Shown here: positions 28,943 through 43,628 of the stretch, piece by piece
How positions within the stretch are numbered: the stretch's first letter is position 1
Layout: each line of letters opens with the position of its first letter
From: an uncultured cyanobacterium
GTDB taxonomy: Bacteria > Cyanobacteriota > Cyanobacteriia > Phormidesmidales > Phormidesmidaceae
Direction: 5' to 3'
Length of the DNA: 64,000 nucleotides
Assembly: GCA_963793265.1 (NCBI GenBank)
Contig: CAWBZI010000005.1
Span: 352,001 to 416,000 of the forward strand
Made by a program: the position numbers and the translations under genes
Notes under the pieces: generated by a model
The model's input: the letters and a program-made list of their open reading frames with translations, nothing else
Database searches by the model: none
Told to the model about the DNA's origin: nothing

Positions 28943-30079
28943 CTAGCTCCGAATCTGTACTGGCATGACTAAATACGTCATCTTAGTACCGCCTAACGGC
29001 GTTAGTACAGAAGGACTTGTCGCCGTATTGCACTGAATTTGAATCTCAGAAGTGGGCAATGCTTTGAGCCCTTCTAGCAAATAGCGCACGTTAAAAGCAA
29101 TATCCAAATCTTCGCCTGTGATTTGAGCAGGCATTGTCTCAAGCCCGCTACCCACCTCTTGCGCCTCTACAGATAGCGCTAGCGACTGGGTTTCGTTAGC
29201 CACGGAGAGCTTGACAATGTTATTGCGCTGGTCGGCCATCACAGCAATCCGCTCTAGCGAAGACACAAGCTGCTTGCGATCAACCGTAAGCTGTCGCTCG
29301 AACTGCTTGGGAATAAGCTGTCGGTAGTTGGGATATTGACCTTCTAACAGCCTTGTGGTGATGCGCTGCTGGCCCAAATCAAAGACGACTTGGGTTGAGT
29401 CGAGCTGAAAGGCGACTGGCTCGTTGCTAGGGTAGATTTGCAGAATTCGCTCCAGCTCGCGGAGAGCTTTGCCTGGAATCGTCACGTCCATTTTGAGCGT
29501 AGAAGCAGCGCCTCCGGCTTCATCAACCGTTTGCACTACTGCCAATCTATGACCGTCTGTCGCCGCAAATTCTAAGCTCTCATCATCAGCCGTTAGATGA
29601 ACGCCTGTTAGCACCTGCTTAGTTTCATCAGAGCTAGTAGCAAATAAAGCGCCCCGTAGCCCTTCAATCAATGCGTCGGCAGACACTTTAATCGGCTCAC
29701 TCGTTTCTACCTCAGGGAGCTTGGGATAGTCTTCGGCGCTCAGGCCCCGCACCTGATAGCGACCGGCTGAGCAAGAGAGCGTGACTACTGGCTCATCATC
29801 GTCTTCGCTAATATCGAGTTCTTCGTTGGGCAATCGGGAGACGATATCGCCTAAAAGCTTGGCTGGCAGTGTCAGCGATCCACTTTGGTGAACCTGCGCG
29901 GTAAACGTGGTTTGAATGCCCAGGGTTTCGTCAAATCCAGTTAGGGTTACTTGCTGCGTATCTGTGCTGGCGCTGACTAACACGTTGCCTAAAACCGGCT
30001 TGCTGGGCCTAGAAGGGACTGCCCGGCTCACTAGCGAAAACTGGGTGCTAAATTCGGCCTGCGGGCAGCTAAATTTCAT
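28943..30079 (-). CDS. dnaN: DNA polymerase III beta sliding clamp
   Basis: AATDGHRLA, LLEGQYPNY, IAFNVRYL and YLVMPVQIR motifs; next to dnaA. Confidence 0.98.
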   Translation of the reverse strand: MKFSCPQAEFSTQFSLVSRAVPSRPSKPVLGNVLVSASTDTQQVTLTGFDETLGIQTTFTAQVHQSGSLTLPAKLLGDIVSRLPNEELDISEDDDEPVVTLSCSAGRYQVRGLSAEDYPKLPEVETSEPIKVSADALIEGLRGALFATSSDETKQVLTGVHLTADDESLEFAATDGHRLAVVQTVDEAGGAASTLKMDVTIPGKALRELERILQIYPSNEPVAFQLDSTQVVFDLGQQRITTRLLEGQYPNYRQLIPKQFERQLTVDRKQLVSSLERIAVMADQRNNIVKLSVANETQSLALSVEAQEVGSGLETMPAQITGEDLDIAFNVRYLLEGLKALPTSEIQIQCNTATSPSVLTPLGGTKMTYLVMPVQIRS

Positions 30080-30102
30080 CGGGATCTAAATTTCATCGGG
30101 AT
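30069..30102. repeat. 17-bp perfect tandem duplication across the dnaN start codon
   Basis: CTAAATTTCATCGGGAT at 30069-30085 and 30086-30102. Confidence 0.9.
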
Positions 30103-30227
30103 GAGGAGTGAAGGGCATCGCTAGAGAGCGAACCTTTGAGAAACTGACCTGAGTTGCCAAATATATCACCTAACTGACCCTGGTCAAGCGGGCTAAAAAT
30201 TCATTCTTTTTGAACTACTCTGGACTC

Positions 30228-30476
30228 TTTCTTTTTAAAAAGCTTATTTAAAAGTAGTAGTAGTAGAGCCTGTGGAAAATGTGGAAAACTCGACTTTTTT
30301 CCTAATATATGGTCATCCTAGCCATTTCTAGACTGTGGAAAACCTGTGGAAAAAGTCCCGAGTTTTCCACAGGCTCAGAAATGTGGAAAAAGTTTTCCAC
30401 AAGGGCCCCAAAGTTTTCCACAATTTCTCCACAAAAGGGAAGGGGGTTTTCCACAGAAAAAGGGGGTTTTTCCACA
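30228..30476. promoter_or_regulatory. oriC: Chromosomal replication origin oriC
   Basis: Ten perfect cyanobacterial DnaA boxes TTTTCCACA/TGTGGAAAA (30271, 30280, 30334, 30345, 30363, 30382, 30393, 30414, 30447, 30468), one 1-mismatch box (30425), (TAG)4 trios at 30255-30266 and an adjacent AT-rich tract, all between dnaA and dnaN. Confidence 0.93.
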
Positions 30477-30525
30477 GGCAATCCCCCTATGTTTTGTAAT
30501 ATTTCTTTACTCTATTTCGGCAAGA

Positions 30526-30579
30526 AGAAGCCTCTGCACACTCTGGTCAATATCCAGAGGTCAATGTGCAGAGGCTTCT
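30526..30579 (-). terminator. Long hairpin downstream of dnaA
   Basis: 15-bp stem AGAAGCCTCTGCACA...TGTGCAGAGGCTTCT with an inner CTCTGG/CCAGAG stem. Confidence 0.65.
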
Positions 30580-30646
30580 ACGTTCGATATTTGGTTTGAT
30601 ATTTGTCGGTTTGGTATTTGATGGTGGGATTTAGTGATCGCCCGCG

Positions 30647-32071
30647 CTAATGCCCAGAGACAACCATAATGTGATCGCTCACTTCCTGAATCTTCTGAGC
30701 CAGGTTTGGATCTCGCTTGACGATTTGCGTAATCTTGTCGCAGCTATACATCACCGTCGTATGGTCTTTGCCGCCAAACTGATCGCCTACCTTCGGCAAA
30801 CTCAGGTCTGTATGCTTTCGCATGAGATACATGCCCACCTGCCGCGCCAGGCTGATCTCACGGCGACGAGAGTGGCTTTTAAGATCGTCAATAGAAATTT
30901 TGAACGCGTCAGAGACGGCTTTGATGACTGTTTTGGGCGAGCACTCTAGCCGCTCTGCGGGTGGGTCAAGTACGGGGATCAGATTTTCTACGGTCATCGG
31001 TAAGCCTGCAATTGAGGTGTAGGCGATAGAGCGGGTGAGGGCTCCTTCTAGCTCACGGATGTTAGAGGTGTAGGAGGAGGCGATGTATTCAGTCACGTCT
31101 CTAGAGAGCGTCACCTGCTCGTACTCTGCCTTTTTTTGCAAAATGGCGATGCGGGTTTCAAAGTCGGGCGCTTGAATGTCAGCGATGAGGCCCATTGAAA
31201 ATCGGGAGCAGAGCCGGTCTTGCAGGCGGGGAATTTTATTCGGCGGTCGATCGGAGGCGAGTACGATTTGCTTACCTGCCTGGTGGAGCGAGTTAAACGT
31301 GTGGAAAAACTCTTCTTGGGTGTATTCTTTGCCCTCAATGAACTGGATATCGTCTACTAAGATCACATCGACTTCGCGATACTGCTCTCTAAAGCGCTGC
31401 ATGGAGTCGCGGCGGATAGAGGCAATCAGGTCATTGGTAAAAGTTTCGGTGGAGACATAGGCCACTCGTGCGTTTTTGTCGCTTTCCATGCGGTATTGGC
31501 CGATGGCCTGCATGAGGTGGGTTTTGCCTAAGCCGACGCCGCCGCATAGAAATAGCGGGTTGAATTCTTGGCCGGGCGATTCGGCTACGGCTAGCGCTGC
31601 TGCGTGGGCCATACGGTTGTTTGCGCCGACGACAAAGCGCGAGAAGACGGCCTTGGGGTTGAGATCGGATGAGTCGATACTGCTGTGGCTCGTTTGGCCT
31701 GAGCTGGTGGCGATCGCATCCGTTGCCGGGGCTGTGGGTGCTAAGGATAGAGTAGGACTGCCGTCGCTGGGCCGTCCTTCACTGACCCGTCCTTCGGGTG
31801 CCATCTCAGCCTGCATGGTTTCGTTCGTAACAATGACGACGACATTAACGCGATGGCCGAGGACTTCTTCAGCAAGCTCTGAAATATGGCCTAAGTAATG
31901 CTTTTGTAGCCAGTTGCGAGCAAAAGGATTGTCCGTGAGGAGCACAAGCTCTTGGTCGGATAGTGACTGAACGCGGGTGGGCTTAATCCAGGTTTCAAAG
32001 GTAGGGCCGCTGAGCTGAGCTTCTAACCTTGTTAGGATTTCTTTCCAAAGCTCTTCTTTGATCTGGGCCAC
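30647..32071 (-). CDS. dnaA: Chromosomal replication initiator
   Basis: [31 protein letters not shown] and FGGKDHTTV motifs. Start set at GTG 32071 (GAGG ribosome-binding site upstream). Confidence 0.98.
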
Positions 32072-32762
32072 AGATTTACCTCGACTGTTTGCTTTGACTT
32101 CTAGGATTTTCTTAGGGGGTGTTCCGATTTTCGGTGAGGCAAAAGACGCGCATGGACGAAACGTATCCATGCGCTTTGCAGTGCGTTTGAGGAGGTATAT
32201 AGCTATCAGTAATGACTAGAGAACGGTCTGAAGTACTGAATGAATGAGGCGGCTTGCCTACTCGCTGACTTCTAAGGACTTTCTAGACTACTAGATATAG
32301 CGCCTAAAAAGACGGCAGGAATCTATACGTAGTGTGAGTGATTGGAAGATACAAAGACGTGTGTTTAAATTTGGTTTCTGAATTATAGGGGGTTTATCTT
32401 CTCGGAGGTGCATTTTTCAAGAGACTTTTACATTTTTTGAAAGCGATCGCGCTGAATCAGATTTTTGCGGGTGCGATCGCACTACAAGAGAAAGCGATAC
32501 CTGCAAACCAGCACAACTATCAATTGTTGTTCTGTGTGATCGCATACTTTTTATATGGAAATAGGAGATTTATTTTTAAGCGAGCTGAGGTGCGATCGCA
32601 TATCCCAAAACAAGACTTTCCTCTACCGATCCATTCCATAGAACTGTCACTGCTAAAGTCCACAGTCCTCAACCCCTTCTGTTAGAACAAAAATGATTGA
32701 ATAGTCACCTGCTGCTATTTAATCATTTTTGTTAATATCCATCATTTAGTAGAGAATTCAGC

Positions 32763-34130
32763 ATGAAATTGTCTGACAAGCCCCATCGCTCTCAAAACGT
32801 CGAAACCCCTAGCAGACGTAAAGTACCTTGCTGGCTGCGTCAGTCTATGACTTACGGGCTGATGACAGCGGCGAGTACAGGCACTGTGCTGCTGCTAACC
32901 GGCCAAGAATTCTCTAATAAAGCCCATAATTTTGCCTACGAGCCGCTGCAATACGAGTCCGCTCCTCTCACCACTGGGCAGATCGAAGGCGCTCAGTACG
33001 ATCAGGTGCAGCTTGCCGATGAGGCGACGACCAGAACCGCTGCCGATGAGCCTGTGCTGTTGAGCCAGGCAATCGGCACGGAGCGTCTGATTGGCGGTGC
33101 GAACTTTATTGCTTCGGCGGCGGAGCGAGTCGGCCCAGCGGTGGTGCGAATTAATTCAGCGCGTACGGTGACCGCGCGGCGGCGTCCCAGCATTTTTAAC
33201 GATCCGTTTTTCCGTGAGTTCTTTGGTGAGCAGGGCATTCCTGAGCAGCCTGCACAACGGGTAGAGCGCGGTACAGGGTCGGGCTTTATTTTGGATGCGA
33301 ACGGGACGATTTTGACGAATGCTCACGTGGTAGAAGGCGCTGACGAGGTGACGGTGACCCTCAAGGATGGTCGGGAGCTACGCGGTGAGGTGATGGGTGA
33401 AGATCCGCTGACGGACGTGGCGGTGATTAAGATTGACGCGAGCAATTTGCCGACGGTGAGCATTGGGGATTCGGATGCGCTGCGGCCTGGGGAATGGGCG
33501 ATCGCGATCGGTAATCCTTTGGGCCTAGATAATACGGTGACGGCGGGGATCATCAGTGCGACGGGTCGGACGAGCGCTCAGATTCGTGTGGCTGATAAGC
33601 TCGTGGAGTTTATTCAAACGGATGCGGCGATTAATCCGGGTAACTCGGGCGGGCCGCTTTTGAATGACAGCGGTGAGGTGATTGGCGTGAATACGGCGAT
33701 TATTGGTGGCGGCGCTCAGGGGCTGGGCTTTGCGATTCCGATTAATCAGGCGCGGGCGATCGCAGGTGAGCTGATTGCAAATGGCAAGGTCGAGCACGCC
33801 TACCTGGGCATTCAGATGCGGACGCTGACCTCGGCGCTGAAAGATGAGATTAATGCCGATCCGAATGCGAATATCAACGTGCAGGCTGAAGAGGGTGTTG
33901 TGATACTAGGGATTGCCCAAGGTTCGCCAGCGGCACAGTCGGGATTGCGTCTGGGGGATGTGATTTTGACGATGGATGGTAAGACGATTACGGAGGCGAC
34001 TGAGGTGCAAAACTTGGTGAAAGCAAAAGCGGTGGGCGATGCGATCGCGGTGAGTGTGAATCGAGGCGGGCAGACGGTGCAGCTTTCGGTGCGGCCAGGG
34101 GCGTATCCTGTTGAGACGACGCGACGCTAG
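32763..34130 (+). CDS. HtrA/HhoA/HhoB-family serine protease with PDZ domain
   Basis: TNAHVV, DVAVIK and [15 protein letters not shown] catalytic-triad motifs; C-terminal PDZ domain. Confidence 0.95.
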
Positions 34131-34183
34131 GATCTTGGGGGAGTTGTGCTTGAGTGGTGTGCTTAGCTATTGATACGCTGGAG

Positions 34184-34221
34184 CCCTCATCCCCAGCCCT
34201 TCTCCCCGAGGGAGAAGGGAG
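34184..34221 (+). repeat. Short dispersed REP-like hairpin
   Basis: CCCTCATCCCCAGCCCTTCTCCC-CGA-GGGAGAAGGGAG, a recurrent cyanobacterial repeat architecture. Confidence 0.6.
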
Positions 34222-34236
34222 TTAGAGCCTATTTTT

Positions 34237-35016
34237 ATGGATTTCCCTGTTTACTTTCCTCTCGGGCCTGTGCGCCTCCATCCGCATTTTGTGATGGAGG
34301 CGTTGGCTTATGGGGTGGGTTTGTATGTGAGCTTGTTTCGACGGCTCAGGCAAAAGGATGCGGCCGATCAGATAACCGGATCTCAGCGGACTTCTATTTC
34401 GGTGGGGGCGTTGGTGGGTGCTTTGATTGGCGCGAAGCTACTGGTGACTGTTCAGCATATTGATTTGCTGTGGCAGGACTGGCGGCTATTTGGGCTGATG
34501 GTGCTTCAGGGCAAAACGATTGTGGGGGCTTTGCTGGGCGGCCTGATTAGCGTGGAGGTGACGAAGAAATGGATCGGCGTGCGGCGCTCTACGGGCGATA
34601 GCTTTGTGTATTCGGTGCTGTGGGGAACGGCGATTGGGCGGGTTGGGTGCTTTTTGACGGGGTTGAGCGATCGCACCTACGGCATCGCTACGTCCTTACC
34701 CTGGGGCATTGATTTTGGTGACGGCATTGCGAGGCATCCCACCCAGCTTTATGAGGTAGGTTTTTTAGTGCTGTTATTTTTCGGCTTGCGGTGGTGCGAT
34801 GCCAAACCGCGCCGAGAAGGCGACTTATTTAAGATTTATATGATTGCCTACTTGAGCTTTCGCTTTTTTATAGACTTCATCAAACCTGAATTTCGTCCGC
34901 TCCTTGGCCTCAGTGCTATCCAGATTGCCTGTGTGGGTGGGTTAATCTACTACTTTCCCAGCGCTCTACGACTTGTGAGGCAACTGCGCTCAGATCCTTT
35001 AGAAAAACTGCACTAG
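34237..35016 (+). CDS. Divergent prolipoprotein diacylglyceryl transferase (Lgt)-family protein
   Basis: Multi-pass membrane protein with IGAK, GRVGCFL, LPWG, RHPTQLYE and RFFIDF motifs; lacks the usual (S/A)xHGG His motif. Confidence 0.88.
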   Translation: MDFPVYFPLGPVRLHPHFVMEALAYGVGLYVSLFRRLRQKDAADQITGSQRTSISVGALVGALIGAKLLVTVQHIDLLWQDWRLFGLMVLQGKTIVGALLGGLISVEVTKKWIGVRRSTGDSFVYSVLWGTAIGRVGCFLTGLSDRTYGIATSLPWGIDFGDGIARHPTQLYEVGFLVLLFFGLRWCDAKPRREGDLFKIYMIAYLSFRFFIDFIKPEFRPLLGLSAIQIACVGGLIYYFPSALRLVRQLRSDPLEKLH

Positions 35017-35024
35017 GAACCCTT

Positions 35025-36446
35025 ATGCCTACTCGCCCCTATCTGTTTTATGCCCTGACTAACAGCGTGTGCTCTACGTGCATGAATAAGCTAGAGGCCA
35101 AGATCATCTTTCGCGATGACAAGGTGTATTTGATTAAGCACTGCCTGATTCACGGGCGCGAGGAGGTGCTGATTGCAGATGACGTGGCGTATTACAAAAA
35201 GTGCAACGCCTTTATTAAGCCTGCGGATATGCCGCTGAAGTTTAATACGCCGATTAAGTACGGCTGTCCTTATGACTGCGGTCTGTGTCCCGACCATGAG
35301 CAACATAGCTGCCTGACTTTAATTGAGGTGACGGATCAGTGCAATCTGGCCTGTCCGATTTGCTATGCCGATTCGGGGGCAGAAAATGAGGCGGGCCACG
35401 TGCCGCGAAAGCATCGATCTTTGGCGCAGATTGCCGAGATGATGGATGCGATTGTGGCCAATGAAGGGTCGCCGCAGGTGGTGCAGATTAGCGGTGGCGA
35501 GCCGACGGTGCATCCTGAGTTTTTTGAGATTTTGGATTTGGCGAAAGAAAGGCCGATTCAGCATTTGATGATTAATACAAACGGGGTGCGGATTGCGAAA
35601 GACCGGGCGTTTTGTGAGCGCCTGGCGGAATATATGCCGGGGATTGAGATTTATTTACAGTTCGATAGCTTTGAGGCGGCGGCGCTGAAGGAGCTACGGG
35701 GGGCTGATTTGCGGGAGGTGCGATCGCGCGCGTTATTAAACCTGAATGAGTTCAATATTTCGACTAACCTTGTGGTCACTGTGAAGAAGGGGCTGAACGA
35801 TAGCGAGATTGGTAAGATTCTCGATCATGCTTTAGTGCAGAAGTGCGTGCGAGGGGTGACGTTTCAGCCGATTCAGGCGGCGGGACGGTTGGAAGGGTTT
35901 GAGAAGGGGCGCGATCGCTACACCCTCACCGAAGTTCGCCGCTCCATCCTCGAACAGTCCAACCACTTTCAGCCTGAAGACATCCTGCCGGTACCCTGCC
36001 ATCCTGACTGCCTGGCGATGGCCTACGCGCTCAAGGTAAAAGGACAGGTAATTCCTCTAACTAGCCTGATCTCTCCCGAAGCCTATGTTGAAACTGTTCC
36101 AAACAGCATTTTGTACGAACAAAGCGAAGGCTTAAAGCAAAAGATATTCGATCTCTTTTCTACAAAGCATTCGCCCGCATCGGCAACAACCTCACTCAAG
36201 CAGCTACTTTGTTGTTTACCTTTACTGCCCACGCCCGCAGGCATCACCTACGAAAACGTTTTTCGCATCACAATCGTACAGTTTCTAGACGCTTATAACT
36301 TTGACGTACGCTCGGTTAAGCGTTCCTGCATTCATATCGTGCATCCCGACGGGCGCATTATTCCTTTTGATACGTTCAATATGTTTTACCGCGAAGGAAG
36401 TGCGGGCCATCATTTGGTGACTAATCGAGAGATGGTATCTCAATAG
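35025..36446 (+). CDS. Radical SAM enzyme of the Tes/GDGT-MAS (MJ0619)-like family
   Basis: N-terminal CxxC...KHCLIHG; GCPYDCGLCPDH; CNLACPIC radical SAM motif; SGGEPT; IYLQFD; FQP; C-terminal FLDAYNFD...CIH...DGRIIPF. Confidence 0.88.
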   Translation: MPTRPYLFYALTNSVCSTCMNKLEAKIIFRDDKVYLIKHCLIHGREEVLIADDVAYYKKCNAFIKPADMPLKFNTPIKYGCPYDCGLCPDHEQHSCLTLIEVTDQCNLACPICYADSGAENEAGHVPRKHRSLAQIAEMMDAIVANEGSPQVVQISGGEPTVHPEFFEILDLAKERPIQHLMINTNGVRIAKDRAFCERLAEYMPGIEIYLQFDSFEAAALKELRGADLREVRSRALLNLNEFNISTNLVVTVKKGLNDSEIGKILDHALVQKCVRGVTFQPIQAAGRLEGFEKGRDRYTLTEVRRSILEQSNHFQPEDILPVPCHPDCLAMAYALKVKGQVIPLTSLISPEAYVETVPNSILYEQSEGLKQKIFDLFSTKHSPASATTSLKQLLCCLPLLPTPAGITYENVFRITIVQFLDAYNFDVRSVKRSCIHIVHPDGRIIPFDTFNMFYREGSAGHHLVTNREMVSQ

Positions 36447-36479
36447 GCTGTTGGTTGTGACGCAAATAAGGAGAAAGCT

Positions 36480-36803
36480 ATGGAACGTCGAAATAGAAGA
36501 TGGGAAGTGCTGCAGGGCATATTGTTGCTGTTTGGTTTTCACATCCTAGTATGGGGGCTGGTATGGCTTGTATCATATCTATTCACGTTTCTACTTGGCA
36601 TCTCTTCTTTGGCCCTTGTGTCGTCCGTTTTGTTCGTAGGCATTGGATTGTCACAGCTTTTTTACGTTTTGCCGCTATGCCTGTGGCTACAACGACGTGG
36701 CCGTGCCGAGCTTGCAAAAGGCGTCGTGATTGGCGCTGTAATTACTTTTCTGCTGAACGGTAGTTGTTTCGCATTCGTTCTGTATTCTCTTAATAATTAT
36801 TAG
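36480..36803 (+). CDS. Small 3-TM membrane protein with C-terminal LLNGSCF motif
   Basis: AGGAG ribosome-binding site; three hydrophobic helices; paralogous to 36910-37269. Confidence 0.8.
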   Translation: MERRNRRWEVLQGILLLFGFHILVWGLVWLVSYLFTFLLGISSLALVSSVLFVGIGLSQLFYVLPLCLWLQRRGRAELAKGVVIGAVITFLLNGSCFAFVLYSLNNY

Positions 36804-36909
36804 GGCTTTGTCCTGTCGAGAACTGTCCTACAGCGGGAGCTGAAAGCCCATACAAGCCGGTTTGAGGCTATCTCGGCTTTAATACTAGCGATATCTGTGA
36901 GGTAAGTTT

Positions 36910-37269
36910 ATGAAAGACAACTTCTTCAGCCGTGCTTTAAAGCGCGTTATGATGTTTCCAAAAAATCTCTCAGTTGGAGTAGACAAAGGCATAGGCTGGT
37001 TACTGCTGTGCCATCTATTAGCTGAGGCGCTACTGCTAACGGTAGGTGTGTCGATGTCGCCCATCATGATAGGCAGCTATCCGTCAGATGAGCTGTTATT
37101 GGCCGCTATGCTTTGTATTGGCATCACACAGCTAATCTATGCCATTCCGCTTTGCCTATGGTGTGCCTCTCGCAGACGCTTTGAGACGATGAAGGGCGTT
37201 TTAATCGGTATGCTGATCACGGCTTTTTTGAACGGGACTTGCTTTCTCGGCGTGGTGCTGACTGGATGA
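36910..37269 (+). CDS. Small 3-TM membrane protein with C-terminal FLNGTCF motif
   Basis: GAGG ribosome-binding site; shares IG.(S/T)QL.Y..PLCLW...RR....KGV.IG..IT..LNG(S/T)CF with the preceding gene. Confidence 0.8.
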   Translation: MKDNFFSRALKRVMMFPKNLSVGVDKGIGWLLLCHLLAEALLLTVGVSMSPIMIGSYPSDELLLAAMLCIGITQLIYAIPLCLWCASRRRFETMKGVLIGMLITAFLNGTCFLGVVLTG

Positions 37270-37347
37270 CTGCTTTGTTGCATTCTTTTAATAAGAACCG
37301 ACTTATAGCGCGAACTGCAAATCTGTATAAGCCGGTTCGAGTGGGCT

Positions 37348-37650
37348 TTAATTACACGGTTTGCGTAGCAGGCTGATGGCTTCGCTTTGAGCAGGCGAAA
37401 TGGTCAGCGGTTCTTCAATCGTTAGAACAGGCGTCCATAGGATCGTTTCGGCATAGTGCAGGGTGTGTAGCAAATGAATGGTTTGCTGGATTGCGCTGGG
37501 AGAGCCTAGCAGTATGTGCCGGATATGTTCTTTGGAGGGTGTGCCATCGGCGGTGAGTTGTACGGCAGTTCTCAGGGCCGATGCGTCAGTCTGAAGTAGC
37601 CCTGTGCCTGTGCCTGTAGGCTCAGCGGTCAATAAATATGAGGGTTTCAT
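37348..37650 (-). CDS. Conserved cyanobacterial hypothetical protein (HILLGSP...TIHLLH...YAE...W family)
   Basis: GGAG ribosome-binding site before ATG 37650; the motif is a recurrent small-protein family in filamentous cyanobacteria. Confidence 0.7.
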   Translation of the reverse strand: MKPSYLLTAEPTGTGTGLLQTDASALRTAVQLTADGTPSKEHIRHILLGSPSAIQQTIHLLHTLHYAETILWTPVLTIEEPLTISPAQSEAISLLRKPCN

Positions 37651-37845: not shown

Positions 37846-38076
37846 GAGGCGGTTGATTGTTGCTCGTGCCTGAGCGATGTGCCCAAACGGTTTGCAACAA
37901 CCCTATAAAACAGCGTATCACAGGACGCTTTTTATGGTGCTAATTGTTTCATAGGAAATCATCACAATTACGTAGGATGAAGATATTGCCCTGCTGCTGA
38001 CTGGCCGGAATTGTGATGAAGAAAATTGATGTAGGGTTTAAGAACAAACTATTTTAATTTTCTAAAGGTGGCGCTT

Positions 38077-38451
38077 ATGGAACCGATTACTTTGGCGATG
38101 GTCGCGCTGACGGTGGTAGCGACTAAGGCGACGGAAAAGGTGGGTGAAACGCTGGGAGAAGGAGTGATTGCTTCGGCGCAGCGATGGTTAGAACGGCTAA
38201 GGCGACATTCTCCCGATACGGCTATGCGCCTGGAAGCGGCGACGGATGCTGAGGTGATTGAGGCGGAAATTATTGCAGAAGTGACGCGAGTGTCGGCGAA
38301 GCATCCAGATGTGCAGATGGCGATGGATGCGACGGCGGCGGCAGTTGCGCTAGACCAAAGTTCGTTTCAGAGCTTGACCAAGTTAGCTGACAAAATTGGG
38401 GTTGTTAATCTTGGCAATGTGACAACTCAAAACAACACTATTAATCTTTGA
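38077..38451 (+). CDS. Bell-like helical protein with C-terminal amyloid-like motif, upstream of an NLR
   Basis: Hydrophobic N-terminal helix MEPITLAMVALTVVATKA and N/T/Q/G-rich tail KIGVVNLGNVTTQNNTINL; directly precedes the NB-ARC-TPR gene. Confidence 0.7.
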   Translation: MEPITLAMVALTVVATKATEKVGETLGEGVIASAQRWLERLRRHSPDTAMRLEAATDAEVIEAEIIAEVTRVSAKHPDVQMAMDATAAAVALDQSSFQSLTKLADKIGVVNLGNVTTQNNTINL

Positions 38452-40349
38452 CTGAGTTCGGCGGGAGGGGCACCGCCAGAGTTAAGCACCCCTAACAATT
38501 TGCCTGTGAGTAATGTCAGCGTGTTTGTTGGTCGCGATGACGACTCGCGGGCGGTGGATGCTTTGCTGATGGAAAATCAGCAGGCTAATATTGCGGCGGC
38601 TGTGGGCATGGGCGGCGTGGGCAAAACGGAGCTGGCTTTGCAGTATGCGCGGTGGCGCGGCGAGGCGTTTGCAGGTGGGGTGTGCTGGCTGCGAGGGATA
38701 GAGCCGATTGCCTCGCAGATTGTGGGTTTTGCGCAGGCTTATTTGAATTTGGATGTGCCGGAGCAGGTGGATAATCCGGTGGCCTGGTGCCTTCAGCGGT
38801 GGCCGAATACGGGAGCCAGAAAAGGGCCGGTGCTGATGGTGGTAGACGACGTGCAGGACTATGGCGCGCTGAAGGCGATGCTGCCGAGTAGCGGGCGGTT
38901 TCGGGTGCTGCTGACGACGCGGCGGGCGATTTTGCCAGTGGGGCAGCGGTTGGCGCTTGCGGTGCTGATGCCGGGGGCGGCGCTGTTGCTGCTGAAAAGC
39001 CTGGTGGGTGCGGCGCGGGTTGAGGCGGAGATAGCAGAGGCAGCGGCGCTGTGCGAGTGGGTGGGGCGGCTGCCGCTGGGCATTGAGCTGGTGGGCTGAT
39101 ATTTGTCGGAGCGGCCTGAGCTGACGGTGGCGAGGTTGTGATACAGCGGCTAGAAGATAAGCGGCTGGCGGCTAGGGCGCTGATGGAAACGCATCCAGAG
39201 ATGACGGCGACGTTGGGCGTGGCGGCGGCGTTTGAGGTGAGCTGGGAGCCGCTGTCGGCAGAGGCAAAGATGCTAGCCGGGCTGTTGGGGCTGTTTGCGG
39301 CTGCGCCTGTGGCGTGGGAATGGGTGCAGCGGGCTTGCGAGCAGGCGGCGGTGCTGGATGAGGAAGCTTTAGAAGATGGGCAGGCGGCGTTGCTGCGGGT
39401 GAATTTGCTGCAAAAGCAAGGGGTGCAGGGTGAATTGCGCTATCAGGTGCATCCGCTGGTGCGGGAATCCTTTGGGATGAAGCGAGCGGATTTGGCAGAG
39501 GCTGAGGCTTTGCAGCGGGGCTTTGCGAAGGCGATGACGGATGTGGCGAAGGCGATACCGCCAGTTGTGACGCTAGATGTACGAGCGTGGGTGGTCGTGG
39601 CTGTGCCGCATTTCGAAGAAGTGACGCAGCGGTGGACAGAGGTTTTGAGCGGCGGTGACAAAACTTGGTGCTGTACGGGACTATCGCGGTTTTATGAAAG
39701 TTTGAGCCAGTGGGACGAGGCGGAGCAGAGCTATAAGAATGCCCTCAAAATTAGTAAAGAGCAGTTAGGCGATCGCCATCCTGACACCGCTAGTAGTCTG
39801 AATAACTTGGCGTTACTGTATCGTTCGCGGGGCCAGTATGCAGCCGCAGAACCGTTGTATGTAGAAGCGCTGGAAATCTGCAAAACAGAGCTGGGCGATC
39901 GCCATCCTGCCACCGCTACGAGTCTGAACAACTTGGCGTTACTGTACGAGTCGCAGGGCCAGTATGCCGCCGCAGAACCGTTGTATGTAGAAGCGCTGGA
40001 AATCTGTAAAACAGAGCTGGGCGATCGCCATTCTGTCACCGCTACAAGTCTGAACAACTTGGCGGGACTGTATCGTTCGCAGGGCCGGTATGCAGCCGCA
40101 GAACCGTTGTATGTAGAAGCGCTGGAAATTAGCAAAACAGAGCTGGGCGATCGCCATCCTGACACCGCTGGAAGTTTGTTCAATTTTGCCGCGCTTTACT
40201 ACCAAACCCAGCGACATCAACAAGCCCTATCTTATATCCAACAGGCCTTAGACATCTACGTTCAAAAGCTAGGTTCCGAGCATCCAAATACACAAGCCGC
40301 CCATAGCTGGCTTCTATCCATTCAACAGGCAATTGATGGGTCTGCGTAG
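38452..40349 (+). pseudogene. NB-ARC + TPR (bacterial NLR) pseudogene
   Basis: PNNLP...FVGR, GMGGVGKTELA, VVDDV, LLTTR and LPLGIEL motifs; in-frame TGA at 39097; 2-bp frameshift near 39138; C-terminal LGDRHPDTA TPR repeats. Confidence 0.88.
39769..40170 (+). repeat. 126-bp near-identical tandem TPR-coding repeats
   Basis: HIP1-containing GCGATCGCCAT recurs at 39769, 39895, 40021 and 40147 (period 126 bp = 42 aa). Confidence 0.92.
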
Positions 40350-40363
40350 CTAACTTGTCATTC

Positions 40364-40714
40364 TTACTTTGAATCTACGATCTCTTTTAATTCTCGAACA
40401 GCTTGTTCTAACCCTGGCAGGTAATTCTCTACGGCATCCCATATCCTTTCCATATCAATGCCTCTTAAATAATCATGAACCAACACGTTCCGAAAACCTG
40501 CGAGTGCTCTCCAATCAACATCTGGCGCACTTGCTTTCAAATCATCAGAGAGTCTTTGAGTCGATTCTGCCATCGTCTGCAATCGCCGTAATACCGCATC
40601 TTGAATCAGTACATCGCTCAAAAAGTCAGACTTACCACCTCTGGTATAGTCACGAATCAGCGCAGCGCATTCTGCAATATACTTTAAATGGACAAGGCTA
40701 TTCCCATCAGTCAT
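40364..40714 (-). CDS. HEPN (DUF86/HepT-like) RNase toxin
   Basis: RNVLVHDY Rx4H-Y motif; ATG 40714 overlaps the MNT stop codon (ATGA). Confidence 0.9.
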   Translation of the reverse strand: MTDGNSLVHLKYIAECAALIRDYTRGGKSDFLSDVLIQDAVLRRLQTMAESTQRLSDDLKASAPDVDWRALAGFRNVLVHDYLRGIDMERIWDAVENYLPGLEQAVRELKEIVDSK

Positions 40715-41001
40715 AGTGGCCGCGCTTCTGCTAAAACCTGCTCTCGAATTAATGGACTGATTCCGTTTTCTGTCAGTATGTCTACCTTTCGCCCCAACAA
40801 ATCCTGCCAATCCATCAGCAGCCCACCCGGAAACCAGGGCGTTGTCTTCTCCCGATCGTAATCAATCAGAAAATCAATATCACTCTCTGAAGTCTCCTCA
40901 CCCCTCACTACTGAGCCAAACACCCGCACATTGGACGCACCATGGCTTGCTGCAATCTGCAAAATCTCGGCTCGTTTTTCGTGCAAGGTGTCTAATAGCA
41001 T
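40711..41001 (-). CDS. Minimal nucleotidyltransferase (MNT/MntA-like) antitoxin
   Basis: VFGSVVRGEE..SDIDFL motif and LLGRKVD. Confidence 0.92.
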   Translation of the reverse strand: MLLDTLHEKRAEILQIAASHGASNVRVFGSVVRGEETSESDIDFLIDYDREKTTPWFPGGLLMDWQDLLGRKVDILTENGISPLIREQVLAEARPL

Positions 41002-41090: not shown

Positions 41091-42521
41091 TTACTGCGGC
41101 TTCGGCTCGTAAAAGATAGTTTCAATCGGCTGAGAGTAGGCAGGCGGCTTAGTCACCAAACGGTTAGACCGCTCGTACAGAGAGTTCGACTGCTTTTTAC
41201 CATATCCAAACAGGGTGTCAACGTCTCCAGAGTCCTCTTGCTTTGAGGGTTGATAGAACGTGTCTTTTTGAAACTGATAAGCCGTTTGGTATAGCGTCTT
41301 TTCAACGCCGTTAATTGTGGTTAGATTAGAGCGATCGCCTCCCCGAACAGGCCGATAGAAGTTATCTGAATGCTGCGTTTGCTTAATGCGATCGCCACCC
41401 CTATCATCCGCTACACCATAATCCAACGCTGCCAAAGATTTAGGCTGCAACAGCTTTGAAGCCTGGTAAGTCAGCGTAGGATTTTCACTAGAGGCAATCC
41501 AATTGTTCTTCCAGTTTTCCGACACACTGTTGATATCAAAGCCTGCTGCCCTCTGAAAATGCCATAGGCCGCCCTGCAAAAAGAAAAAAGCCAGGTAGAA
41601 GTGAGCATTGGCTAGCCATACACGAGTCGTATAGCCGTCGGCCAGGGTCGGTTGAGCCTCAAAATAGCGCGGTAGCAGTAACGGTCTGAGTTCTAGGGTG
41701 GGGCCATAGAATTTCTCGGGATAGGCCAGCGAGTCGAAGCCGCAGTACAAGGAGGCCGCAAAGCCTGCGATCGCAATACCAAACAGTGAATAAGCTAAAA
41801 TCCCGTCTCCCGAGAAAAAGAAAACCTGCTTAACCCACTGAAAGGGAGGCACCAAAATATGCCAAATGCCACCGACGAGCAGCAGAGCGGCGACATAGAT
41901 ATGGCCACCCACAAGATCTTCAAGACTGCGAACATCAAACAGATGCGTTCTGTAGTCCCAAATAACAGCCGGATCGAGGGTCGGAGCGGTAACCAGCCTT
42001 GCTGAGTCCGAGTAAGCATCGTAGAGCCCGCCGAAAAACTGCGCTTTGGCAACGAGCAGCAGTGCGCCCAAGCCCAAAAAGATAAGATGGTGCCCTAAGA
42101 TAAGACCTAGTTTTCCAGCATCTTGCCATTCAAAATGAAATTTCTCGGCTCTGTTGTTGGTGGCTTCTAGGCTAGCGGGTAGCCGCGTATAGTGAAAAAA
42201 GGCCCCAGCCGCTAGCACAGCCGCTGCAACAATGTGAATGGCACCAATTGAAAACCAAACGCCGGTATCAACAATAGCGCCCTGTGGGCCAATGCCCCAG
42301 CCCTCAGTCGCCAGATGCGGCAGCAAGATTAGCCCTTGAGTGTAAATCGGCGCGCTCGGAGAATAAACTGCTAGCTCAAACAGCGTAAAGGCTCCAGCCC
42401 ACAGCATAATCAGCGCAGCTTGAGCTACATGCGCCACGATGAACGTATTGGAGAGATCGATAAATCGGGCGTTTCCAGCCCACCAGGGATATTTTTCCTG
42501 GGCTTTGTTAGAAGCGTACAT
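41091..42521 (-). CDS. isiX: IsiA/CP43-family chlorophyll-binding antenna protein with long C-terminal tail
   Basis: YPWWAGNARF, AHVAQAAL, LILGHHL, LEDLVGGH and WLANAH motifs; follows apcD/apcB paralogues. Start set at ATG 42521. Confidence 0.85.
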   Translation of the reverse strand: MYASNKAQEKYPWWAGNARFIDLSNTFIVAHVAQAALIMLWAGAFTLFELAVYSPSAPIYTQGLILLPHLATEGWGIGPQGAIVDTGVWFSIGAIHIVAAAVLAAGAFFHYTRLPASLEATNNRAEKFHFEWQDAGKLGLILGHHLIFLGLGALLLVAKAQFFGGLYDAYSDSARLVTAPTLDPAVIWDYRTHLFDVRSLEDLVGGHIYVAALLLVGGIWHILVPPFQWVKQVFFFSGDGILAYSLFGIAIAGFAASLYCGFDSLAYPEKFYGPTLELRPLLLPRYFEAQPTLADGYTTRVWLANAHFYLAFFFLQGGLWHFQRAAGFDINSVSENWKNNWIASSENPTLTYQASKLLQPKSLAALDYGVADDRGGDRIKQTQHSDNFYRPVRGGDRSNLTTINGVEKTLYQTAYQFQKDTFYQPSKQEDSGDVDTLFGYGKKQSNSLYERSNRLVTKPPAYSQPIETIFYEPKPQ

Positions 42522-42616
42522 GGCAGTAGGTTTGCAGATTAGGAGTATTCGGGTAGAGGGCCTGCGCTTACGGGCAGACCCTAGACTAAGCAATGACTGA
42601 TAGAAGGTGCGATCGC

Positions 42617-43102
42617 CTATCTCAAACCCGCAATGATGTGATCGAGATAAACGTCCATTTCCTGACCTGCCTCAGCGCCTACCCGTTGAGTCACCACCTC
42701 CTTCATTGCCTGTATGGCTTGAATAGTCGGCTCAATCGGCACGCCGAGTGATGAGTACGTATCCTTCAGGCCATTGAGAATTCGCTCGTCCAAAATAGAC
42801 GTATCGGCAGCCAGCATGGCGTAAGTCGCATAGCGCAAGAAATAGGTAAGATCTTTGAGACAAGCCGCGTAGCGCCGGGTGGGATACATATTGCCACCAG
42901 GGAGCGTAATGTCTTTGTATAGCAGGCTTTTCTCGACAGTTTTGCTAATAATGCTGTCAACACTTTCGCCAATCTTGCTAGCTGCTTTGACGCGCAAAGC
43001 GCCGGTTTCGAGATATTGCTTGAGCTGGTTAAGGTCGTTACTTTCTAGATACTGACCTTTTTCATCAGCCGGATTAATCAAGGACGTAATGGTGTCTTGC
43101 AT
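42617..43102 (-). CDS. apcB3: Allophycocyanin beta-type subunit (low-light paralogue)
   Basis: [27 protein letters not shown]; operon context. Confidence 0.85.
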
Positions 43103-43154
43103 AGTGGTTTCTAGTTTGTTCTATTCTTGAAAAAACAAGTAAAACGGATAGGCA

Positions 43155-43628
43155 TTAAAAAGAACGCACAAGCTGATCGAAGTAGGGGCCAGCAAGCGCA
43201 GCTTCTTCAGAGCCTAAGCGAGCCATAGCAGCTTGCTTCAGGCAGCGCATTGCCATTTTTAGGTTAGTTAAAGGAACGCCTAGAGAAACGTACATATCGC
43301 GCATTCCATCCAAGCCAATATCTTCTAAGGGCTTAGAATTACCGGCCAGAATGCAATAGCTGACTAAACGGATATACCACCCTTGATCTCGTTGGCAGAG
43401 GGCTGTTTTTTGCTTATCCCCTCTATTGCTAGGCGTATCAGGACACTGGGCCCAGAACTGCTGGCTGCCCTCTTCAACAATCTTTTGTTGGCTTCCTGCC
43501 AGCTTTTGAGCAGCGCTAATTCGCGCACTACTGTTACTAAAAAAGTCTTGAAGCTGAGTCAGCTCAGCGCTCCCTAAAAAACGATCGGCGCGATCCGACT
43601 GAGCAATCACTTTAGCGACAATACTCAT
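43155..43628 (-). CDS. apcD4: Allophycocyanin alpha-type subunit (low-light, red-shifted paralogue)
   Basis: MSIVAKVIAQSD, CPDTPSN, ALCQRDQGWYIRL; operon context. Confidence 0.85.
   Translation of the reverse strand: MSIVAKVIAQSDRADRFLGSAELTQLQDFFSNSSARISAAQKLAGSQQKIVEEGSQQFWAQCPDTPSNRGDKQKTALCQRDQGWYIRLVSYCILAGNSKPLEDIGLDGMRDMYVSLGVPLTNLKMAMRCLKQAAMARLGSEEAALAGPYFDQLVRSF

Follow-up and report, generated by a model that had tools for sequence, protein, structure and literature searches.

The window analysed here, a stretch of 64,000 nucleotides from an uncultured cyanobacterium (assembly GCA_963793265.1, contig CAWBZI010000005.1, positions 352,001 to 416,000 of the forward strand), carries an open reading frame (ORF) at 35025-36446 on the + strand that encodes a 473-amino-acid radical S-adenosylmethionine (SAM) protein with the fold of Tes (GDGT-MAS, MJ0619). 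The gene lies between a paralog of Lgt and two genes for small membrane proteins. We propose, with a probability of roughly 0.4 and judging from sequence, that these three kinds of gene form a dedicated system that would lipidate a cysteine of the small proteins with a radical-tailored lipid, without the storage cluster of Tes. A little less likely is the wider reading of a multi-phylum system, in which a Tes-derived enzyme and a dedicated Lgt would build a new anchor on an internal, non-lipobox Cys by radical chemistry without that cluster; the anchor could be tail-linked and membrane-spanning. What appears to be new is a Tes-fold variant inside an undescribed three-gene system: the trio was not described in the titles and opening abstract lines of the papers found by full-text search, whose coverage leaves out most subscription papers.

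Fold and family placement of the radical SAM enzyme

The genome holds a single copy of the gene. Pfam assigned PF04055 and PF23545 to the protein, and these and PF13353 were the sole Pfam matches at E<=0.1; no SPASM or peptide-recognition domain was found in that search. The best sequence match in the PDB was 7TOL (GDGT-MAS; E 1.6e-62), and three further PDB matches reached only E about 2e-4. The AlphaFold2 model, built from a 99-row alignment, had a mean predicted local distance difference test (pLDDT) score of 91.2, with values below 50 only at residues 379-403. It matched 7TOM with Z 46.2 and a root-mean-square deviation (rmsd) of 1.9 over 400 aligned residues (33% identity; TM-score 0.81), followed by 7TOL at Z 44.5 and then MoaA at 19.9; peptide maturases scored about 19-20. 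The four-domain Tes fold was recovered in this structure search. The initial annotation of this DNA, made by a model from the letters alone, had proposed a Tes-like architecture, and this held: neither the profile nor the structure searches placed the protein in an unrelated subfamily.

Every motif listed in that annotation was present in the ORF: CSTC (residues 16-19), KHCLIHG (38-44), GCPYDCGLCPDH (80-91) and CNLACPIC (106-113) in the N-terminal part, and VPCHPDC (323-329), LLCCLP (394-399), IVQFLDAYNFD (417-427), RSCIH (433-437) and IPFDTFN (446-452) in the C-terminal part. The archaeal counterparts that it had named (CMHFMDAYNFD, RCCIH and IPFCTYN) were found at the corresponding places of the aligned 7TOL chain. 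For the rubredoxin-like site, the spacing given for MJ0619 in PMC9433317 was used for comparison (this and the other papers are cited from excerpts). Conservation was counted in orthologs, defined as sequences that share 45% or more identity with the query; with the query counted in, these made up 190 of 307 distinct sequences, a set that omits loci with matches under 420 residues. The ligands at positions 16, 19, 40, 43, 81, 85, 88, 91, 106, 110 and 113 were unchanged in 190/190 orthologs.

All 8000 of the 8000 homolog candidates scored had E<=0.001, and the best 120 of them shared 74-94% identity with the protein. Together with the Pfam assignments and the invariant ligands, this shows that the motifs did not arise by chance. 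The closest named relatives of the protein are from Phormidesmis (91-94%), and antenna genes of the allophycocyanin type and for chlorophyll are present in the window; the organism is thus an oxygenic cyanobacterium near Phormidesmis, in agreement with the phototroph that had been named from the sequence. Three other, weaker radical SAM matches were found in the genome, and the mere occurrence of such an enzyme in this phototroph is therefore not odd.

Against the NCBIfam profiles, the protein scored 277.4 bits for Tes (NF045702, cut-off 450) and 315.4 bits for TrsS (NF045646, cut-off 490), below the cut-off in each case. Of 75 representatives scanned, 11 exceeded the TrsS cut-off and none that of Tes. 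Tes-clade bacterial proteins of about 540-620 amino acids from the phylum scans passed the Tes cut-off in 8/8 cases tested (493-619), as did 3/3 intein-bearing proteins (595-723). In an IQ-TREE phylogeny of 30 rows, the query fell within an eight-ortholog clade (support 100/99) that was sister to a small E434/S449 clade (96/94) and apart from Tes plus TrsS (99/99), and a FastTree phylogeny of 123 rows recovered the same clades; the trees were midpoint-rooted, with MJ0619 left out and bacterial Tes-clade proteins as stand-ins. Judged by these scores and trees, the enzyme, although of the Tes/GDGT-MAS fold, is outside the Tes family. A plain Tes or TrsS with incidental neighbours is a very improbable reading. 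These are its two best NCBIfam matches, but both fall short of their cut-offs, the clade branches separately, the Cys triad described below is complete in none of the 190 orthologs, and the Lgt paralog is linked to, fused with and co-occurs with the enzyme. Longer forms of 829-2365 amino acids gave 15 matches, namely TrsS-type fusions, intein-bearing Tes and one protein with PF00501; no fusion of a small protein to the enzyme was among them.

The C-terminal site

The C-terminal cluster of Tes is described as being held by three Cys and a labile Met439, and a cluster sulfur is the proposed store of the first lipid radical (PMC9433317, PMC13459092). Conservation suggests that the three Cys are MJ0619 C338, C455 and C470. 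In the 7TOL alignment, with MJ0619 numbering set by a 20-residue offset read from C9/C12, C338 corresponded to C329 of the enzyme, C438 to I417, M439 to V418, C455 to S434, C456 to C435, Y459 to I438 and C470 to D449. The Cys triad at 329/434/449 was complete in 17/17 Tes-clade proteins (8 of them score-tested), 3/3 intein-bearing Tes and 11/11 TrsS, but in 0/190 orthologs, the protein studied here reading C329/S434/D449. Cys was found at 434 in 0/190 orthologs, at 449 in 0/190 (184 Asp, 6 Glu) and at 329 in 64/190. Met was present at 418 in 59/190, and Tyr was outside the four commonest residues at 438. The earlier claim that this site is altered relative to Tes, with S434 and D449 in place of Cys455 and Cys470, was thereby borne out.

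A different set of four Cys (C325, C396, C397 and C435) was jointly present in 187/190 orthologs, 0/17 Tes-clade proteins and 0/11 TrsS, and all seven C-terminal Cys, that is, the triad plus the four-Cys set, were found in 15/117 other relatives. The four-Cys set and the triad would be separate sites, the triad retained in Tes and the four-Cys set in this clade. Because the four Cys coexist with a full triad in those 15 relatives, loss fits better than re-ligation, and the Tes C-terminal cluster site looks lost in this clade as far as alignment can tell. Re-ligation, which the initial annotation had put forward, is therefore not favoured; it is the less parsimonious possibility, kept in view because C325 and C435 are sequence-adjacent to old ligands and D449 is an invariant acid. 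Of the extra Cys that had been noticed in VPCHPDC, C325 is new relative to MJ0619, but C329 aligns with a MJ0619 Cys. The relatives with all seven Cys (P0129, P0142, P0150, P0155 and 11 more) are candidates for five metal sites.

Cyanobacteria are not known to us as makers of membrane-spanning lipids, though no search was aimed at this point. A Tes-like tail coupling on a cluster re-ligated by C325, C396, C397, C435 and perhaps D449, which would yield a membrane-spanning lipid or lipid anchor, is quite unlikely. It would be in keeping with 400 residues of the same fold at rmsd 1.9, with the four Cys in 187/190 orthologs and Asp or Glu at 449 in 190/190, and with the closeness in sequence of C325 and C435 to where the old ligands were. 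Met439 and Tyr459 are reported as invariant among 1,000 archaeal homologs and dispensable in vitro, and the Tes variants M439A and Y459F/L keep activity (PMC9433317), so the losses of these two residues would be immaterial to such coupling; for the same reason we dismissed them as proof of changed chemistry. However, the presence of the four Cys together with the full triad in 15/117 relatives indicates that they are not replacements, four Cys ligands would leave no open iron, and the excerpt of PMC13159169 describes Tes homologs as undetected in the screened diabolic-acid producers and as present in only 3/14 acidobacterial producers.

N184, E208 and R414 were fixed in the clade (52/52 dereplicated proteins), at positions where Tes mostly has A, T and L, and they hint at a more polar pocket. 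Overall, a substrate or chemistry other than that of Tes, as had been suggested from the sequence, is supported as probable. The cluster that the proposed Tes mechanism requires would in this clade have been deleted naturally, and the clade brings its own candidate substrate.

The Lgt paralog, the small membrane proteins and the proposed system

The initial annotation of the enzyme had left out its flanking Lgt paralog and small Cys proteins, which are the more informative feature. The Lgt paralog (Table 1) scored 94.3 bits for PF01790, over the cut-off of 24.9, and 55.2 for TIGR00544, below the cut-off of 118.9; in the ESM Atlas it falls in PF01790 clusters. Its model (pLDDT 95.3) matched 5AZB with Z 13.7 and rmsd 5.5 over 243 aligned residues, the next structure scoring 7.5. 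A housekeeping lgt is present elsewhere in the genome (274 bits vs 94 for the paralog), and two or three Lgt matches were found in 4/5 other genomes checked. In E. coli Lgt, H103, Y26 and N146 are essential, and R143, R239 and Y235 form a head-group network (PMC4728403, PMC8689077). Alignment to 5AZB showed that equivalents of E. coli R143, H196, E202, Y235 and R239 are retained, and among paralog copies R135 and R209 were present in 134/134 and H167, E173 and Y205 in 133/134. The essential sites have V96 for H103 (125/134), H17 for Y26 (127/134) and C138 for N146 (134/134). At the H103 position, Tyr or Phe was found in four further Lgt copies from these genomes. His103 is thus missing from other Lgt copies as well, and we dismissed its loss as proof that the paralog is inactive.

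A same-strand Lgt paralog lay no more than 1.5 kb away at 118/144 ortholog loci (39/44 after dereplication at 80%), compared with 0/16 Tes-clade and 6/52 distant loci; this count needed a flank of at least 800 nucleotides on each side, and 42/186 ortholog loci were dropped for short flanks. Among 301 Cyanobacteriota genomes, in which kin are not independent, 21 had the enzyme, 21 the paralog and 20 both, including unlinked cases. The exceptions were G004 (95% complete), with the enzyme only, and G225, with the paralog only. Fusions with Lgt N-terminal to the enzyme, which follows the last Lgt helix, were found in P0123 (48%) and P0247 (35%) on different tree branches. The idea that Lgt linkage is older than the loss of the triad was dismissed, the triad-bearing, Lgt-linked L103, L179 and P0247 being unplaced in IQ-TREE. 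The sister clade (L164, L165, L166 and L141) has R/E/S at the triad positions and is Lgt-linked; three of its loci add a methyltransferase of the ICMT/PEMT family, and L164 also has a DUF4395 gene. Two loci appear to be relics: L282 (G225) has the paralog alone, among genes that in other genomes surround the trio, and L283 (G273) has a small gene without enzyme or paralog.

Small membrane protein 1 matched no Pfam family at cut-off, and the ESM Atlas neighbours of the small protein have no Pfam family in common; one cluster there is auto-named 'Lipoprotein family protein', which is a lead only. In the family consensus, a basic loop precedes a hydrophobic helix whose end reads LLNG[GAST]C, with the Cys in 99/101 members, Asn at position -3 to it in 79/101, and Y62 and P65 in 101/101. 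Q59, Y62 and P65 are invariant and near the predicted cytoplasmic loop, and the cyanobacterial proteins have about 8-12 residues beyond the Cys. The positive-inside rule predicts membrane orientation, and by this rule the Cys is predicted to be at the outer face. Lgt acts at the outer face (PMC4728403). Small membrane protein 1, with its Cys96, is the candidate lipidation substrate. The small genes are tandemly repeated and diverged, a locus having as many as three of them, and their profile matched 10/301 genomes, 9 of them enzyme-positive.

Small proteins beyond this profile flank the enzyme in other phyla and have the same pattern of basic patch, helix and Cys (LGAGSC, LLAGGC, WAGIC, GFPSC), which was also seen at distant Lgt-linked loci; these partners are without the QxxYxxP motif, leaving the helix-end Cys as the only motif shared. 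A detector for a basic patch, a helix and a small-residue Cys was positive for 21/33 flanking small membrane ORFs (20/44 loci) and for 3/14 at distant loci, compared with 24/577 small membrane ORFs in the genome itself, the two window genes included; the detector was written after viewing the sequences, so this contrast is an overestimate of unknown size. At L220 (3650-4313), the downstream partner has a single helix ending in VVLWSAC that is fused to repeats, presumably WD40-like, and larger proteins may thus carry the Cys. At L284 (6120-6638, in G038), a DUF4870 gene with a helix-end Cys lies between the enzyme and an opposite-strand Lgt paralog and is a possible substitute substrate.

In the proposed system, the Lgt paralog would transfer diacylglyceryl from a phospholipid to the helix-end Cys of the small proteins as a thioether, with H17 perhaps replacing the absent His103 base, and the acyl-chain tailoring of that lipid would be the work of the radical SAM enzyme, acting from the cytoplasm. 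The enzyme would abstract one hydrogen from the lipid chain, and the lipid radical could be resolved without parking on a cluster sulfur, for example if it added to an unsaturated chain or if the four-Cys site assisted. A cytoplasmic location is expected for the Fe-S enzyme; since the two active sites are expected on opposite membrane faces, a lipid would be the simplest substrate for them to share. The lipid reading draws on the linkage, the co-occurrence (20/21), the fusions, the retained head-group residues and the separate housekeeping lgt, as well as on the conserved Cys96, the motif enrichment, the methyltransferases at sister loci and a closest structure, Tes, that binds two phospholipids.

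Several observations weigh against this proposal. The paralog is without His103, Tyr26 and Asn146, none of which E. coli Lgt can do without, and the invariant polar barrel residues N184, E208 and R414 could point to a non-lipid substrate. The canonical lipobox is [LVI][ASTVI][GAS]C after an N-terminal signal peptide (PMC8689077); the Cys motif here breaks this rule at -3 and is outside any N-terminal signal peptide, Cys96 and Cys111 being near the C-terminus, unlike the Cys of a canonical lipoprotein. Lipidation of an atypical lipobox in a cyanobacterium has been credited to a single Lgt (PMC8038367); a housekeeping Lgt that tolerates atypical lipoboxes may make a dedicated enzyme unneeded. 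By the post hoc detector, 24/44 dereplicated loci had no motif-bearing neighbour. Finally, the small-protein profile found nothing in 2/9 enzyme-positive genomes of the class to which the host belongs, and G273 has the small gene alone.

Alternatively, the small proteins could be the substrate of the enzyme itself, in the manner of ribosomally synthesised and post-translationally modified peptides. The enzyme would introduce a cross-link, an epimerisation or other backbone chemistry, the paralog would lipidate the product and signal peptidase II might free a short lipopeptide. The diverged tandem copies resemble precursor genes, and Q59, Y62 and P65 by the cytoplasmic loop, the residues that follow the Cys, the polar barrel and the loss of the Tes triad would all suit such a role. 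We nevertheless consider it rather unlikely: partners in other phyla have only the helix-end Cys in common, that Cys is predicted to be across the membrane from the enzyme, no SPASM or peptide-recognition match was found with Pfam, and peptide maturases reach Z about 19-20 where Tes reaches 46.2. Another scenario, a lipid-only pathway, is doubtful to a greater degree. Here the paralog would supply the enzyme by binding lipids or exchanging their head groups, and the small proteins would be accessory subunits with a structural or redox-active Cys. The three missing Lgt residues, the phospholipid-methyltransferase-like genes at sister loci and a co-occurrence of enzyme and paralog (20/21) that is tighter than that of either with the small family (9/21) are in line with this pathway, but small proteins that the profile does not match converge on a lipobox-like Cys, the known substrate of Lgt.

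Table 1. Coordinates of the three-gene system and of the metal sites of the enzyme within the window.
Feature	Positions	Strand	Remarks
Lgt paralog, 259 amino acids	34237..35016	+	PF01790; stop 8 nucleotides upstream of the radical SAM start
Tes-fold radical SAM enzyme, 473 amino acids	35025..36446	+	PF04055, PF23545, 7TOL/7TOM match
Rubredoxin-like site C16-x2-C19-x20-C40-x2-H43	35070..35153	+	Spacing equals MJ0619 C9/C12/C33/H36
N-terminal auxiliary cluster C81, C85, C88, H91	35265..35297	+	MJ0619 C73, C77, C80 and His
Radical SAM motif C106-x3-C110-x2-C113	35340..35363	+	Invariant in 190/190 orthologs
C325 (invariant, in four-Cys set) and C329 (MJ0619 C338 position)	35997..36011	+	
C396-C397 pair, four-Cys set	36210..36215	+	Inside low-pLDDT segment 379-403
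Altered Tes C-terminal site: V418 (Met439), S434 (Cys455), C435, I438 (Tyr459), D449 (Cys470)	36276..36371	+	
Small membrane protein 1, 107 amino acids	36480..36803	+	Basic loop, hydrophobic helix, LLNGSC; Cys96 codon 36765-36767
Small membrane protein 2, 119 amino acids	36910..37269	+	36% identical to protein 1; helix end FLNGTC (Cys111)

Distribution, neighbouring genes and known systems

The 21 enzyme-positive Cyanobacteriota genomes (E<=1e-40) comprised nine of the host's own class and twelve of other classes. Five further phylum samples, each built around another host, gave matches at the same threshold in 28/251, 37/151, 8/151, 11/351 and 2/121 genomes, of which 2, 8, 2, 10 and 1, respectively, were close (E under 1e-140); the close counts take in the centre genome, and the remaining matches were mostly TrsS, Tes and distant kin. 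Orthologs 47-67% identical were present in several non-phototroph phyla. Among the named records are Paenibacillus, Acidobacteriota, Melainabacteria, Leptospiraceae and Gammaproteobacteria. The one genome of the same family (G247, 99% complete) had no match to the enzyme, paralog or small-protein query. With this patchy spread (21/301) and G247 lacking all three, a role specific to phototrophs was dismissed. The emphasis that the initial annotation had placed on an oxygenic phototroph is weakened further by the supplement of PMC8941075, in which Calothrix sp. NIES-2100 and Leptolyngbya sp. NIES-3755 are already among the Tes homologs. Hundreds of bacterial Tes homologs, 456 of them in that paper, have been put forward as makers of branched glycerol dialkyl glycerol tetraethers. 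The excerpts of bioRxiv 10.64898/2026.02.09.704826 and PMC4758666 contain nothing on this clade. By positions 329/434/449 and the adjoining Lgt paralog, a large aerobic clade can be told apart from the Tes clade, a distinction of consequence for attributing biomarkers.

Just upstream of the trio, 32763-34130 (+) encodes a protease over the HhoA/HhoB/HtrA cut-off, which recurs at 9/81 loci, in close relatives only. Predicted promoters and terminators at 34000-37500 numbered 3 and 4, vs 3.5 and 4.7 in shuffles. Tandem dnaA and dnaN at 28943-32170 (-) are both over their cut-offs, and a replication origin may be near. Downstream, 38500-39099 and 39138-40349 (+) match consecutive parts of NF040586 and are probably one split NTPase-TPR gene; GC skew is high there, and a 127-amino-acid ORF (38068-38451) precedes it. 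A probable type VII toxin-antitoxin pair is at 40364-41001 (-), with a HepT-type RNase at 58.7 bits (cut-off 60); the 96-amino-acid ORF upstream of the RNase, which had no match at E<=1e-12, is presumably nucleotidyltransferase-like. At 41091-43628 (-), two divergent allophycocyanin-type subunits, both under the ApcA/ApcB cut-offs, precede a chlorophyll a/b antenna protein (TIGR03041, 374 bits) whose C-terminus is extended by about 150 amino acids. We take this group to resemble the low-light apcD4-apcB3-isiX operon.

Among known systems, the peptide maturases SuiB and SkfB likewise combine a radical SAM core with small, diverged, repeated genes, but they match the enzyme in the core alone (Z about 19-20), and here there is no SPASM match and the enzyme is accompanied by membrane proteins and an Lgt paralog. 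E. coli Lgt (5AZB; PF01790; TIGR00544) and the paralog are alike in fold and in the equivalents of R143, H196, E202, Y235 and R239. The paralog differs in lacking the His103-GGL motif, in having His for Tyr26 and Cys for Asn146, in scoring under the TIGR00544 cut-off, in being a second copy beside a housekeeping lgt, and in candidate substrates that are polytopic and without a canonical lipobox. TrsS (NF045646) is the best-scoring profile for the enzyme and has the same N-terminal metal sites; however, TrsS keeps the triad (11/11), which the enzyme is without while scoring below the TrsS cut-off, and TrsS occurs in fusions with DVU_1556-type methyltransferase, DVU_1551-type NTP transferase or DUF5714 domains, none of which was seen here. 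Tes (MJ0619, 7TOL/7TOM) has in common with the enzyme the fold, the rubredoxin-like C3H site, the N-terminal C3H cluster, the CX3CX2C motif and the domain order. In contrast to Tes, the enzyme is under the family cut-off, has Ser for Cys455, Asp for Cys470, Val for Met439 and Ile for Tyr459, with the Cys338 position variable in its clade, and carries the polar N184, E208 and R414 and the four-Cys set, complete in 0/17 Tes-clade proteins; it is also linked to an Lgt paralog, as 0/16 Tes-clade loci are.

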